Sequence record: MK047718.1
Length of the DNA stretch: 64,000 nt
Origin: Escherichia phage p000y
Direction: 5' to 3' (one strand)
The position numbers were made by a program, and so were the translations under genes. Below, in pieces: positions 3,264 through 38,307 of this stretch (the stretch's first letter is position 1; each line of letters opens with the position of its first letter). Below the pieces are notes generated by a model that had not been told where the DNA came from, made no database searches, and saw only the letters and a program-made list of their open reading frames with translations.

Positions 3264-4268
3264 TTAAAACATAAACAAAATGTTAATTTCTTCTGTTTGG
3301 TCCATTGCCATAATAACAGGTGGTCGGTTTTCCATATAAATCATTTCACCTGAATGACGTTGCAGGTCTCTAGGGTCGTAATAATCCTTTTCTGCTTTAA
3401 CATTAGGGTCATTTGGATTTTTCTTAGCTTCTAATGGGTTTGCGATAATTGATATCTGTCTAAAACCCTTGTTACCAGGCAAAGCTGCCTCAGGGAAATA
3501 AACAGAATCAAAATATGCTTTAAACCGCATCGTATTGGCTTTAACACGGTAAATCAAACCGTAGTCATCTTGTTGCCAAGTTAAGTTATTTTCATATCCC
3601 CAACGGGTGGGGTCTTCTTTAATTTCTTCCGGCCATGGAACTACAAGATATTCATTAGTGCAACGGTTAATTGACACATCGGCAGGAATCTCATAAAGAT
3701 ATTCCCAAATGTATCCATCACCGGTTTCGATAACCCCATTAGCATCGCCTCTACCTTCAGGAGGAGACATAGAACGAACAGACGGGGTCCATTTACCACC
3801 CAATTTAAGACATTCATCTTTATTATCTAAAGATTCTATTGAACAGAGCCCTACGTCAGGGACATCTAAACAACGGTAAATTAACCAACCGGCTCCAACT
3901 TCTGTCGCGTTGTACGGAGCAGTATTACATGCGACTATATCGTTAATTCTAAACGTGTAAGGGTCTGGATATCGCACATCTCCCCAATCACGTCTAGGAA
4001 TAACAGAATCTAACATTGAAGGTAAAACTTTAACGGTACCCATCATATGGGTCCACATATCAGTAACACCAAGAACAGAATCTGTAGGATAAGGTGGGGC
4101 GAAGCCCACCTCATTTTCATTTGACGCCCAAGGCTCTGAACGTCCAAACGTAATATAAATGGAGTTCTTATCATCTCCATCCCCAACTGAATTATAAAAA
4201 TTCAGCATTTTCTCTGTTCTAAATTTTGATGTAACTATTGCACGATAGATAACACTTGAATCATTCAT
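3264..4268 (-). CDS. 8: baseplate wedge subunit gp8
   Basis: 334-aa ORF, identical length to T4 gp8; synteny. Confidence 0.9.
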   Translation of the reverse strand: MNDSSVIYRAIVTSKFRTEKMLNFYNSVGDGDDKNSIYITFGRSEPWASNENEVGFAPPYPTDSVLGVTDMWTHMMGTVKVLPSMLDSVIPRRDWGDVRYPDPYTFRINDIVACNTAPYNATEVGAGWLIYRCLDVPDVGLCSIESLDNKDECLKLGGKWTPSVRSMSPPEGRGDANGVIETGDGYIWEYLYEIPADVSINRCTNEYLVVPWPEEIKEDPTRWGYENNLTWQQDDYGLIYRVKANTMRFKAYFDSVYFPEAALPGNKGFRQISIIANPLEAKKNPNDPNVKAEKDYYDPRDLQRHSGEMIYMENRPPVIMAMDQTEEINILFMF

Positions 4269-31262: not shown

Positions 31263-31561
31263 TGGCTCAAATCCTATCAGGCTTTGGAACTCATTATGAA
31301 GCATCTAGACGCATAACTGAAAGCAATCCTTTTGGCCTTGTTCCGAAGCACAAGAAAATTCAAAGCCTTGATGACTTTGAGAACCGCCTATGGGCCCTCT
31401 TTAATGAGTACAAGGCGTATCTGAAAGAAGACGCTGACGATTGTCTTGAAGAAGATGAGATTGCGTATTACGAACAACGCCTTGAACAGCTCAAGAACTT
31501 CCATCAGGTTCGTGACGAAGTATCTAAAGCAGTTAAAAAGTTAATTCCTTTCAAAGAGTAG
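31262..31561 (+). CDS. hypothetical small helical protein
   Basis: 99-aa ORF. Confidence 0.6.
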
Positions 31562-31611
31562 TTTACTTCTCCTCTAGTTGTGTTACTATAGACTTGTCAA
31601 CTAGAGGAGAA
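31562..31611 (+). promoter_or_regulatory. early promoter (TTTACT, 16 nt, TACTAT) embedded in a perfect 14-bp inverted repeat that contains the regB Shine-Dalgarno
   Basis: Arms TTCTCCTCTAGTTG (31567-31580) and CAACTAGAGGAGAA (31598-31611) flank the -10. Confidence 0.6.
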
Positions 31612-31617
31612 ATCAAA

Positions 31618-32076
31618 ATGACTATCAATTCGGAAGTTTTTATCCGCCGTAATAAACTCCGTCGAATCTTTGAAACGGAGTTCCGCAAAATAAATGCCAG
31701 TATAAAAGATGCTGCAAAGTCTCTTGGACTACCAGGCTTTCATATCAAGTATTCTCAACATCTCTTAGATCGTGCCATCCAGAGAGAAATAGATGAGAAT
31801 TACGTTTTTGAATTATTTCATAAAGTAAAAAATCACGTTAAAGAAGTTGCAGAATTTTTATCAATGCCGGCACGTCCAGATGTTGATGAAGATTTTGTCG
31901 AAGGTGTCGAGTATCGTCCAGGCCGTTTAGAAATAACTGACGGAAATCTTTGGTTAGGACTTACAGTTTGTCGCGAAAATCCGGCATTCAAAATGAAGAC
32001 TCTTCAATGTAGAATGGCTATTATTAACAGTAAACGACTACCAGGAAAAGCTTCTAAAGCAGTGATTAAAATCTAG
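31618..32076 (+). CDS. regB: endoribonuclease RegB
   Basis: MTINSEVFIRRNKLRR...KYSQHLLDRAIQREIDE closely matches T4 RegB by recall; 152 aa. Confidence 0.9.
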   Translation: MTINSEVFIRRNKLRRIFETEFRKINASIKDAAKSLGLPGFHIKYSQHLLDRAIQREIDENYVFELFHKVKNHVKEVAEFLSMPARPDVDEDFVEGVEYRPGRLEITDGNLWLGLTVCRENPAFKMKTLQCRMAIINSKRLPGKASKAVIKI

Positions 32077-32084
32077 AGGTAAAC

Positions 32085-32627
32085 ATGAGAAAAGCACTAC
32101 TCGCTGGTCTATTTGCTCTTTCGTTATCAGCACATAGCTCCGAGCATACTTTTAGTAATGTCCAACTCGATAACTTGAATTATGCTTATCAGTTTGGGGA
32201 ACAGTTTTCTAAGGATGGAAAATTTAAAACGCATGAAAATATGCATAAGAAAGGACTTGGATACATAATGGCCGCAATACTATGGCAGGAATCATCTGCC
32301 GGTATTAATCTTAAAGATAAGAAAGGTCACCATGCGTATGGAATGTTCCAAAATTATCTACCAACAATGAGGGCAAGAATTAACCAACTTGGTTATAATA
32401 TGACTGATGCCCAAATTAAGAAAATGCTATCTAAGCGGTCTAATTCAGCCAGATGGGCTTATATCGAATTTTCTTATTGGTTAAATATACATAACGGGGA
32501 TATAAGAAAAGCTATATCCTCATATAATGCGGGATGGAAGACAAGTGCCGGAAGTAAATATGCTTCTGAAGTCCTAGAAAAGGCTAATTACCTTAAATCA
32601 AATAAACTACTGGAAATAAAAGAATGA
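32085..32627 (+). CDS. secreted lytic transglycosylase-like protein (SLT motifs)
   Basis: Signal peptide MRKALLAGLFALSLSA; SLT motifs WQESS, YGMFQ, SYNAG. Confidence 0.65.
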   Translation: MRKALLAGLFALSLSAHSSEHTFSNVQLDNLNYAYQFGEQFSKDGKFKTHENMHKKGLGYIMAAILWQESSAGINLKDKKGHHAYGMFQNYLPTMRARINQLGYNMTDAQIKKMLSKRSNSARWAYIEFSYWLNIHNGDIRKAISSYNAGWKTSAGSKYASEVLEKANYLKSNKLLEIKE

Positions 32628-32971
32628 CCAAAATGTTGGCTTTAATAGTTAGCTTGGTTTCATTTAACGCTCTTGCTAATACTACATATACTGATGTAAC
32701 GGAGTATACAAACAGAACGGCGTCTGATTATTGTGGTAAAAGTCAAGAGTGTAAAGTAGATTTTTCACAAAAATTGTTATATGCGTATAAAGACGGAGAA
32801 AAAGACGGGGCGTCTAGTAGGTTCAAGGCGTCTACCTTAATTAAAAGATACTATAAAAAATGGCAAATATTAGAATGCTCGGTGGCGGAACCTAAAGATA
32901 AGGCAGCATGCAATTCTATGGTGGACCGTCTAGTTGACTCTTATAATAGAGGACTTGCAGCAAGTGATTAA
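32624..32971 (+). CDS. secreted hypothetical protein
   Basis: Signal peptide MTKMLALIVSLVSFNALA. Confidence 0.6.
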   Translation: MTKMLALIVSLVSFNALANTTYTDVTEYTNRTASDYCGKSQECKVDFSQKLLYAYKDGEKDGASSRFKASTLIKRYYKKWQILECSVAEPKDKAACNSMVDRLVDSYNRGLAASD

Positions 32972-33431
32972 AAACTATATCAAGGGCGATATTGTCGCCC
33001 TGTTTTCTAAAGGTAATAATATTGCTCATGGGTGTAATTGTTTTCATACAATGGGCGCCGGTGTAGCAGGCCAATTAGCAAAGGCTTATCCAAAAATTTT
33101 AGAAGCCGATAAACTTCAAACCGAATTCGGAGACAAGTCTAAACTCGGGACTTATTCGGTTTATGAAAAATATTTTAAGACCCATAAAGCTTATTGCTTT
33201 AATCTTTATACACAGTTTGAGCCGGGACCTAATTTTGAGTACTCTGCTTTAATGAATTGTATAATAGAATTAAATGAATTCGGAAAGAATAAGATAATAA
33301 AGCCTGTAATTTATATGCCAAGAATTGGTGCAGGTATTGGTGGTGGAAACTGGGATGTCATCGAAGAGATTTTAGATACGTATTCTACTAAACTAGAAAT
33401 TGTGATTGTTGATTGGGAACCGTTATTATGA
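32934..33431 (+). CDS. macro-domain-like protein (possible ADP-ribose binding/hydrolase); start uncertain
   Basis: Motifs NNIAHGCNCFHTMGAGVAGQL and PRIGAGIGGGNW resemble macro-domain glycine-rich loops; only non-ATG starts available (TTG 32934, GTG 32964). Confidence 0.45.
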   Translation: MTLIIEDLQQVIKNYIKGDIVALFSKGNNIAHGCNCFHTMGAGVAGQLAKAYPKILEADKLQTEFGDKSKLGTYSVYEKYFKTHKAYCFNLYTQFEPGPNFEYSALMNCIIELNEFGKNKIIKPVIYMPRIGAGIGGGNWDVIEEILDTYSTKLEIVIVDWEPLL

Positions 33432-34640: not shown

Positions 34641-34853
34641 ATGCAGCAATTAAACGAAAGACAACTTCGTAATCTTACTGTAACCCAATTAGATGAAATC
34701 CGAAGAGAATTAGGACATTCTATTTCTCATTTAAACGAGGATATCCGTCAAACTGGTTCTAAAGCTGATTATACACGCAAGCGCAAGCTGGAAAAATACC
34801 TCACAGATGTTAAGGCCGTCCAAAGGCGAAAAATAAATACTGGCCAAAATTAA
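34641..34853 (+). CDS. hypothetical protein
   Basis: 70-aa ORF between tk and rI. Confidence 0.6.
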
Positions 34854-34865
34854 CAGGAGGCCTAT

Positions 34866-35168
34866 ATGGCCTTAAGAGCGATAGCTGTCATAGCGATGCT
34901 GGGGTTTTTTGCAGCAACAACTCCTATCGTTGGTACTGCACATATCGACCCATATTTTGATAACTTTATGGAATCAGGGATTAAAAACGTATATACTTTG
35001 TTTGAAATTCAAAATGTCGAGAATTCTGAAAAATTCTATAAGTATATGGCAAAGCATTACAAAAATAGCCCCTGTGATGATGCATTTGAATGTCATGAAC
35101 AAGGCATAAAAACTGCCAGACAATTTGCCGAGTTCATGAAAATAAAATTAGAGCCTACATCTATCTAA
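34866..35168 (+). CDS. rI: lysis inhibition regulator rI (antiholin)
   Basis: 100 aa with signal-anchor; resembles T4 RI by recall (FMESGI...KNSPCDD...FEC). Confidence 0.85.
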   Translation: MALRAIAVIAMLGFFAATTPIVGTAHIDPYFDNFMESGIKNVYTLFEIQNVENSEKFYKYMAKHYKNSPCDDAFECHEQGIKTARQFAEFMKIKLEPTSI

Positions 35169-38040: not shown

Positions 38041-38307
38041 ATGAAAAAATTAGTAATTGGTTTATTCGCAGTAATGATGGCGTTCTCTGTTGGTGCTACC
38101 ACGGGTGCAGGAGCTGGTGGTAACCAGTCTTCTGGGCCTTCCAATGGTTCGGTAAATGCATCACATTCTCAGGGTATTGAGAATATCAAATCAAGCTATA
38201 TTAATAGCACGGCTGGACAAGCAACTGAAGCATGGTCAAAGGGCCGAGTAGTTACTCACTCTGTATTCTGTGATATGCCTAATTATGTTGCTAAGTGCGA
38301 TAAGTAA
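38041..38307 (+). CDS. small secreted protein, hypothetical
   Basis: Signal peptide MKKLVIGLFAVMMAFSVGA; Gly/Ser-rich. Confidence 0.6.
   Translation: MKKLVIGLFAVMMAFSVGATTGAGAGGNQSSGPSNGSVNASHSQGIENIKSSYINSTAGQATEAWSKGRVVTHSVFCDMPNYVAKCDK

Follow-up and report, generated by a model that had tools for sequence, protein, structure and literature searches.

Lytic transglycosylases of family 1 are recognized by a set of motifs, ES, GxxQ (G-L-M-Q) and YNxG (A-Y-N-x-G), completed by a downstream tyrosine. Enzymes of the EtgA/VirB1 type make local gaps in the murein for machine assembly. In phage T4, the endolysin e and the gp5 lysozyme are GH24 enzymes, distinct from the protein described below. 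The present analysis concerns a 64,000-nucleotide stretch of DNA from Escherichia phage p000y (sequence record MK047718.1; "the window" hereafter designates this whole stretch) and, within it, two consecutive genes of the plus strand, the orthologs of T4 vs.1 (32085-32627) and vs (32624-32971). The former specifies a 180-amino-acid (aa) precursor, predicted to give rise to a periplasmic lytic transglycosylase of the SLT/GH23 class (phrog_600, E 3.7e-67); the latter specifies the 115-aa precursor of a presumptive exported four-helix protein that is annotated as 'valyl-tRNA synthetase modifier' (phrog_1256, E 3.3e-35). Taken together, the data make it probable that Vs.1 is an exported SLT/GH23 transglycosylase and Vs an exported protein whose synthesis is coupled to that of Vs.1, the two genes being co-transcribed with regB from an early promoter.

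Part of this picture was anticipated. In 2006, Nolan et al. published a marginal SLT match of vs.1 and referred to a previous PSI-BLAST match obtained for T4 (PMC1524935), and names such as 'Transglycosylase SLT domain-containing protein', 'lytic transglycosylase' and 'SLT transglycosylase' are found in UniRef and in several GenBank entries. The PHROGs entry for phrog_600 reads 'unknown function'. The core finding on Vs.1 is already known: the prediction had been published, and the gene family, with homologs in about 2,000 phage records, is a familiar one.

The closest counterpart, T4 Vs.1 (NP_049725, UniProt P13311), is 82% identical to the window protein, agrees with it in length, signal peptide and motifs, and is likewise encoded between regB and vs; no substantive difference separates the two. 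With the catalytic domain of Slt70 and with MltE/EmtA, MltD and LtgA (PF01464, GH23), Vs.1 has in common the ES, GxxQ, YNxG and Tyr motifs, a lysozyme-like helical fold and a (predicted) periplasmic location. It differs from these enzymes in being remote in sequence, in consisting of a bare catalytic domain, and in having an N-terminal helix peculiar to its family (FSxxQxxNLxYAYxFG) and an extra invariant glutamate, Glu128; it also appears to be soluble rather than lipid-anchored, and is made early by a lytic phage. The minimal architecture, a signal peptide followed by an SLT domain of about 160 aa, is that of EtgA, VirB1, IpgF and P19, specialized enzymes that serve secretion and conjugation machines. 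No trans-envelope machine was found beside vs.1, its neighbors being regB, vs, the tk.4 macrodomain gene, tk and rI. Finally, phi6 P5 and the N-terminal domain of T7 gp16 have the GH23 fold in common with Vs.1, but these are virion or lysis proteins, unlike Vs.1 with its Sec signal and its early timing.

The 2 kilobases (kb) surrounding vs.1 and vs are 99.5% identical to the corresponding DNA of Shigella phage JK36 and of other Mosigvirus (RB69-like) genomes, and a search with this stretch matched 656 phage records. The window is from an RB69-like (Mosigvirus) phage of the T4 type. In JK36 and T4 the genes are arranged on a single strand in the order regB, vs.1, vs, tk.4 (macro domain), tk.3, tk.2, (tk.1), tk, rI.1 and rI. 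The window vs gene lies between vs.1 and tk.4 as it does in T4, and its product is 65% identical to T4 Vs; the Vs family also corresponds to PF26829. An earlier, sequence-only reading of this DNA had given exact coordinates for the two open reading frames (ORFs); it did not recognize them as the named T4 genes vs.1 and vs, and it missed both the published SLT resemblance of the first and the ValRS-modifier annotation of the second.

That reading had also attributed three SLT motifs to the 32085 protein, all of which lie where it put them. Motif I, WQESS (residues 67-71; 32283-32297), includes Ser71 and Glu69 (32289-32291), the predicted catalytic acid. Motif II, YGMFQ (residues 85-89; 32337-32351), provides Gly86 and Gln89 and is followed by Asn90, while motif III, SYNAG (residues 146-150; 32520-32534), provides Tyr147, Asn148 and Gly150. 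Tyr159 (32559-32561), on the 3′ side of motif III, is a probable motif IV. Each of these numbered residues is invariant in an alignment of 54 Vs.1 homologs, which come from phages of Escherichia, Klebsiella, Serratia, Acinetobacter and Aeromonas and are 40-83% identical to the window protein. When compared with the Pfam SLT profile (PF01464), the window protein scores 18.8 bits (E 0.0013), the cut-off being 21.3 bits. The same profile is matched by 46 of the 54 family members at E<0.01 (best E 1.3e-7), and precomputed PF01464 matches are present on many Vs.1 homologs. SLT is the sole Pfam family matched by the Vs.1 family, with no competitor. No NCBIfam family was found for either Vs.1 or Vs.

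The structural comparison bears out the SLT fold proposed in the sequence-only reading. An AlphaFold2 model obtained from the family alignment has a predicted local distance difference test score (pLDDT) of 91.8 and a predicted template-modelling (TM) score of 0.84, and its top 20 Foldseek neighbors in the PDB are all GH23 enzymes. These include Ralstonia GH23 chitinase (3w6e, the single best match), MltD (8rhi) and Slt (6fcq) of P. aeruginosa, Neisseria LtgA (5o2n), phage phi6 P5 (4dq5) and E. coli Slt70 (1sly). Foldseek probabilities are mostly between 0.84 and 1.0 (0.54 for one phi6 P5 chain) and TM scores range from 0.34 to 0.63. Thus, a profile match at the level of the family, the glutamate of an E-S pair, the GxxQ, YNxG and Tyr elements and a lysozyme-like helical fold are all found in Vs.1. 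The mature protein has a predicted mass of about 18.7 kDa and a predicted pI of about 9.6.

Two acidic columns only, E69 and E128, are conserved in the Vs.1 family. An alignment of the family with E. coli MltE (hhalign, E 0.14; informative as to the aligned residues only) places E69 on the glutamate of 'AIES', and a full-domain, non-significant alignment of the Vs.1 profile with goose-type lysozymes places it on the glutamate of 'RES'; both alignments are weak. In the search of the PDB with the Vs.1 profile, the goose-type lysozyme and EtgA alignments (E 0.91 for the EtgA chain) were non-significant and ranked below spurious metacaspase matches, and a single-sequence search of the PDB with Vs.1 returned nothing. 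The Vs.1 alignment has no conserved Asp after E69, of the type used by hydrolytic goose-type lysozymes. Since E69 and E128 are the only conserved acids and this Asp is missing, the single-acid pattern appears closer to lytic transglycosylase chemistry than to that of a hydrolytic goose-type lysozyme. Glu128 (32466-32468), the second invariant acid, falls in a helix, AYIE(F/L)SYW, and no counterpart of it was identified among the family-1 motifs.

Export signals were scored by a rule calling for three features: an n-region with a net positive charge, a hydrophobic core 8 residues long, and a small residue at both -3 and -1. The products of both genes, which the sequence-only reading had described as signal-peptide proteins, pass this rule: in each, a basic n-region is followed by a hydrophobic core and then by a small-x-small site. 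In Vs.1, the predicted signal comprises residues 1-18 (32085-32138; MRKALLAGLFALSLSAHS|SEH), with cleavage at AHS|SEH or, alternatively, at LSA|HS after residue 16. In Vs, it likewise comprises residues 1-18 (32624-32677; MTKMLALIVSLVSFNALA|NTT), with predicted cleavage at ALA|NTT. The pattern is found in 112 of 119 Vs.1 homologs and in 30 of 36 Vs homologs, the exceptions being 5′-truncated gene calls or proteins of marginal hydrophobicity. By the same rule RegB fails, and Tk.4 and Tk are too low in hydrophobicity or in n-region charge. In both families the signal segments diverge faster than the mature parts while keeping their architecture, pairwise identity being 27% in the signal versus 50% in the mature region for Vs.1, and 41% versus 60% for Vs. 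In the structural models, these segments are of low confidence and unpacked against the domain: the pLDDT is 72-76 for the first 20 residues of Vs.1, exceeding 90 in the remainder, and about 50 over residues 1-19 of Vs. These features indicate that both proteins carry export signals, from which we infer that they are exported and cleaved. A loose rule of this kind flags 16 among the window's 165 ORFs that are 60 aa or longer, and in 3 of the 16 the hydrophobic core starts within the first few residues: vs.1, vs and a plus-strand ORF at 38041-38307. The last encodes a third classical signal-peptide protein, 88 aa long (MKKLVIGLFAVMMAFSVGA|TT...; phrog_2243, function unknown).

The case for export is strengthened by the diversity of the Vs family. 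Searches with Vs gave 8 close matches, 40 with a profile, and 7 cluster representatives among 1.8 billion proteins in an exhaustive hidden Markov model search. Inspection of the genes that follow vs.1 in two phages, one a Jiaodavirus and the other infecting Acinetobacter, revealed a divergent branch; it is joined to the Vs family by hhalign (98.4% probability, E 6e-15) and adds a further 385 phage records. Of the 56 distinct ORFs in the resulting survey, 54 are full-length. Every full-length ORF has an N-terminal export signal, and all 54 have exactly four cysteines in the mature region. In one lineage, represented by viral contigs L036-L038, L040 and L061, a lipobox (ALSGC) stands at the end of the signal instead of a signal-peptidase-I site. 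Because homologs switch between a lipobox and a signal-peptidase-I site, an exported protein is the sole sensible reading. The lipobox-lineage homologs (ORF at about 3549-3875) begin MKKLFVLLVVFALSGC....

The four invariant cysteine codons of the window gene lie within 32732-32911: C37 (32732-32734), C43 (32750-32752), C85 (32876-32878) and C96 (32909-32911). In the AlphaFold2 model (pLDDT 86.5 overall, above 90 from residue 21), Vs is a four-helix bundle with helices at residues 20-37, 41-64, 69-85 and 90-114. C37 and C43 flank the turn between helices 1 and 2, C85 and C96 that between helices 3 and 4, and in each case the two residues are predicted to pair, giving two disulfide staples at the helix turns. 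The predicted mature protein has 97 aa, a mass of 11.0 kDa and a pI of 8.3. A comparison of the model with the PDB identified no informative neighbor of the fold, and a single-sequence search of the PDB returned a chance antibody match only.

An export signal on Vs contradicts the annotation of this protein and needs explaining; it does not merely add a second periplasmic protein to the locus. The name 'valyl-tRNA synthetase modifier' is used uniformly across hundreds of records. Classical genetics tied vs to the rescue of a temperature-sensitive valyl-tRNA synthetase (ValRS; valS host) in vivo, implying action in the cytoplasm. The assignment also draws on a purified factor: the tau factor of Muller and Marchin (1977) is reported to be about 10 kDa, close to the 11.0 kDa predicted for mature Vs; the predicted processed size of T4 Vs is also 11.0 kDa. 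Reportedly, the vs annotations are transfers from one assignment made in the 1980s; the ValRS-modifier label itself is 50 years old. We found no paper discussing a signal peptide in Vs, one phage genome report containing both terms having been left aside. In some records vs is labelled 'valyl-tRNA synthetase', that is, as the enzyme itself.

The vs gene is tightly linked to vs.1. Among 70 viral contigs with a vs.1 homolog (protein identity down to 26%), 56 have a Vs-family ORF starting between -8 and +7 nt from the vs.1 stop codon, and 8 more have one 0.5-1.2 kb downstream. No vs was found in the remaining 6, which comprise four Aeromonas-phage-like vs.1 contigs and two contigs of about 310 kb. 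By comparison, regB is directly upstream of vs.1 in 51 of the 70 contigs and tk.4 directly follows vs in only 27. In the Acinetobacter-phage contigs L052-L055 and L058-L060, the overlapping vs.1-vs arrangement is kept and regB was not detected within the 3-kb flanks. When the same collection was searched with two Vs alignments, 33 loci were obtained, all 33 on contigs also carrying vs.1. In that collection, every vs was accompanied by vs.1, but not every vs.1 by vs. This adjacency is suggestive evidence for a functional pair, not proof, because T4-like genomes are broadly collinear. In 19 contigs, an insert of about 400 nt separates vs from tk.4. Two phages encode a third signal-peptide protein, of about 130-140 aa, after vs, at 2309-2707 of L004 (Klebsiella phage KpnM6E1) and at 2282-2707 of L003 (Acinetobacter phage Mokit); in Mokit the next gene specifies a protein with an N-terminal hydrophobic segment, and rI comes after it. 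The window is without such a gene.

The first gene of the block is regB (31618-32076, plus strand; start taken from the JK36 annotation), which encodes an endoribonuclease (Pfam REGB_T4, E 1.7e-69). It ends 8 nt before vs.1, and the vs.1 stop codon overlaps the vs start codon in the sequence ATGA (32624-32627), an arrangement implying that translation of vs would be coupled to that of vs.1. Given the short gap and the overlap, regB, vs.1 and vs most simply form one early unit. There is no room for a further promoter directly before vs.1 or vs. An early-type promoter lies upstream of regB on the plus strand (31561-31589), with a -35 element, GTTTAC (31561-31566), separated by a 17-nt spacer from a -10 element, TACTAT (31584-31589). 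Both hexamers are kept in T4 (GTTTAC/TATAAT) and in Klebsiella phage KpnM6E1 (Jiaodavirus), that is, over three genera. Judging from its position and conservation, this promoter is the likely source of a regB-vs.1-vs transcript. A generic sigma-70 scan was uninformative, yielding 21 promoter-like sites versus 21.6 expected. In T4, vs.1 and vs are both classed as 'early-RNA_middle-Protein' (time-resolved omics supplement, PMC9697503); the protein class means that both products were detected in infected cells. The early expression assumed in the sequence-only reading is reasonable in view of the conserved promoter and of the T4 classification.

Two RNA elements border this unit. A perfect 11-bp inverted repeat (CTCCTCTAGTT / AACTAGAGGAG; 31567-31611, plus strand) can form a hairpin of -21.6 kcal/mol (z -4.2) that buries the regB Shine-Dalgarno sequence, GGAG, and has the promoter -10 hexamer in its loop. 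Because of the latter feature, the left arm should be missing from transcripts that start at this promoter, leaving them translatable, while read-through transcripts arriving from upstream should be masked. T4 shows a similar arrangement. At the other end, a GC-rich stem-loop (GGGCGAUAUUGUCGCCC then UGUUUUCU; 32983-33010, plus strand) is found 12 nt past the vs stop codon, within the start of tk.4, and its stem is identical in T4 despite the divergence of the surrounding DNA. At least one record annotates a terminator somewhere within the matched 2-kb stretch. The stem-loop may be a partial end of the regB-vs.1-vs transcript or may simply reflect conserved codons. No Rfam family was found between 31000 and 34000.

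Transposon insertion sequencing (Tn-seq) of T4 provides data on the loss of either gene (10.1101/2025.11.20.689424). Both are non-essential, insertions having been recovered at 46 of 52 TA sites in vs.1 and 30 of 32 in vs. In LB liquid, however, mean counts are 22.6 for vs.1 and 26.6 for vs as compared to 179 for regB, 290 for tk.4 and 652 for vs.3, which puts vs.1 and vs mutants about 10-fold below neighboring genes. In M9-glucose the log2 change is -0.87 for vs.1 (p 0.0055, adjusted p 0.155) and -2.19 for vs (adjusted p 0). The authors confirmed that a vs knockout makes poorer plaques on M9-glucose and read vs as a ValRS modifier (10.1101/2025.11.20.689424). The similar under-representation of vs.1 and vs mutants fits a shared function.

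These elements can be assembled into the following scheme. The regB-vs.1-vs unit would be transcribed from the early promoter, with vs translation coupled through the ATGA overlap. The Vs.1 precursor would leave the cytoplasm by the Sec pathway and lose approximately its first 18 residues, giving a soluble, basic periplasmic protein with a single SLT/GH23 domain. With Glu69 acting as the lone catalytic acid, Vs.1 would, starting a few minutes into infection, cut host murein at the MurNAc-GlcNAc bond, and its products would most probably carry 1,6-anhydroMurNAc ends, as expected from lytic transglycosylase chemistry. Vs would be co-produced and co-exported, its mature 11-kDa four-helix bundle having two cysteine pairs at the helix turns. 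Of these steps, the enzymatic activity of Vs.1 and its product, the disulfides and any interaction between Vs.1 and Vs are inferred. Remodelling of the murein by Vs.1 during infection, which the sequence-only reading had put forward, is plausible; it might serve to loosen the sacculus locally, to prepare lysis or to turn murein over when nutrients are limiting, or be connected with superinfection or with lysis inhibition, rI being located 2 kb downstream.

Several observations weigh against this scheme. The window Vs.1, taken by itself, is below the Pfam SLT threshold, no PDB structure is matched significantly from sequence alone, and the Foldseek E-values are modest, from 6.8e-3 (best) to 0.5. 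The signal-peptide calls rest on our own rule-based scan and on conservation, not on SignalP. Beyond the similarity noted by Nolan et al. (2006), no activity or biochemistry of Vs.1 is reported in the searchable literature. The collinearity of T4-like genomes and a linkage of regB to vs.1 almost as tight as that of vs (51 of 70) make adjacency less telling, and the similar fitness of the two mutants could be due to polar effects of vs.1 insertions on vs. The textbook label of Vs, a binder of cytoplasmic ValRS, is at odds with export. Lastly, early synthesis and export of an enzyme that cuts murein should put the infected cell at risk, barring weak activity or some restraint on the enzyme. This risk, together with the gene pairing, makes a regulatory role of Vs the most attractive open hypothesis.

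With regard to Vs.1 itself, the GH23 fold is common to goose-type lysozymes and to the chitinase that heads the Foldseek list; that, the full-domain albeit non-significant alignments to goose-type lysozymes and the invariant E128, which has no assigned role, could be taken to mean that Vs.1 is a hydrolytic muramidase of the goose type or an accessory endolysin that is secreted and acts at lysis, and not an early lytic transglycosylase. We regard this as unlikely: the hairpin that follows the catalytic Glu has no conserved Asp, the motifs (ES, GxxQ, YNxG, Y) are those of family-1 transglycosylases, the T4 ortholog shows early RNA and middle protein timing, and phages of the T4 type already have the endolysin e, whose gene is almost free of transposon insertions in T4, unlike vs.1. 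The sub-threshold Pfam score of the window protein might even suggest a catalytically silent, SLT-like murein-binding protein. That proposal is highly improbable, for the residues of the catalytic motifs are all invariant down to 40% identity, which points to selection on catalysis.

The place of action of Vs is more debatable. It is possible, and we propose it tentatively, that Vs is a four-cysteine envelope protein, lipid-anchored in one lineage, which restrains or directs Vs.1 in the periplasm as an inhibitor, chaperone or targeting factor made in stoichiometric amounts by virtue of translational coupling; the ValRS label would then be mis-assigned, or would refer to a secondary or artefactual activity. 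The export signal of every full-length Vs, the lipobox lineage and the invariant cysteines at the helix turns agree with this proposal, as do the overlapping or abutting vs.1-vs junction, kept even where regB is undetected nearby, and the one-sided co-occurrence of vs with vs.1 (33 of 33 loci, as against 6 of 70 vs.1 contigs without vs). So does the finding that both mutants are under-represented and that the vs defect exceeds the vs.1 defect, as would be the case for an antidote or a regulator. On the other hand, both mature proteins are basic (pI 8.3 and 9.6), the classical genetics implies that Vs acts in the cytoplasm, and collinearity could account for the adjacency. The converse proposal is that Vs is the cytoplasmic ValRS modifier of the annotation, with an N-terminus unused or only partly used for export and an inherited gene adjacency. 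The annotation is uniform, the defect of vs mutants in minimal medium could have its origin in translation or in the supply of amino acids, and the four cysteines, located at one end of the bundle in the model, could bind metal in the cytoplasm. Nonetheless, this account seems somewhat less likely, as the n-h-c architecture of the signal is kept despite 41% identity there, a lipobox would be functionless in a cytoplasmic protein, the N-terminus is unpacked in the model, and the uniform annotation reportedly goes back to a single assignment.

A restraining role of Vs would have a parallel in known periplasmic inhibitors. Spackle is a periplasmic inhibitor of the gp5 lysozyme. T4 Spackle and the bacterial lysozyme inhibitors Ivy, PliG and MliC, also periplasmic, offer a functional analogy only, that of a small exported protein, made early, which might restrain a murein enzyme; no similarity of Vs to any of the four was detected in sequence or fold. 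An entry 'sp spackle periplasmic protein' is listed in the T4 Tn-seq data (10.1101/2025.11.20.689424). If Vs does restrain or direct Vs.1, the need for vs in minimal medium would reflect cell-envelope biology and not translation. More generally, if Vs is periplasmic, its textbook annotation is wrong or incomplete, and both the problem of ValRS modification and the minimal-medium phenotype become open to simple genetics; if export fails, the finding is an ordinary one. Vs.1 is a widely conserved, uncharacterized, predicted exported murein enzyme of T4-like phages, set apart from the endolysin and the tail lysozyme by its early timing, and its practical value is small. For specialists, the point lies in the strongly supported export of Vs, set against a universal annotation, and in the tight pairing of vs with vs.1.

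Further downstream on the plus strand, the tk.4 macro-domain gene (32964-33431; Pfam Macro, E 1.7e-6) overlaps the end of vs. The T4 ortholog of tk.4 was named AdfM, an anti-DarTG2 factor, in a 2025 preprint, and homologs are still labelled 'phosphatase' in many records. About 2 kb downstream of vs, on the same strand, lie rI.1 (34641-34853) and the lysis-inhibition gene rI (34866-35168; phrog_1246, E 2.6e-30). The proximity of rI.1 and rI to vs.1 and vs means that several envelope-directed genes are clustered in this region. Mislabelling extends to other genes of the group: vs.1 homologs appear in many records as 'endoribonuclease', 'RegB' or 'site-specific RNA endonuclease', and a vs.6 homolog as 'pyruvate formate-lyase' in some.

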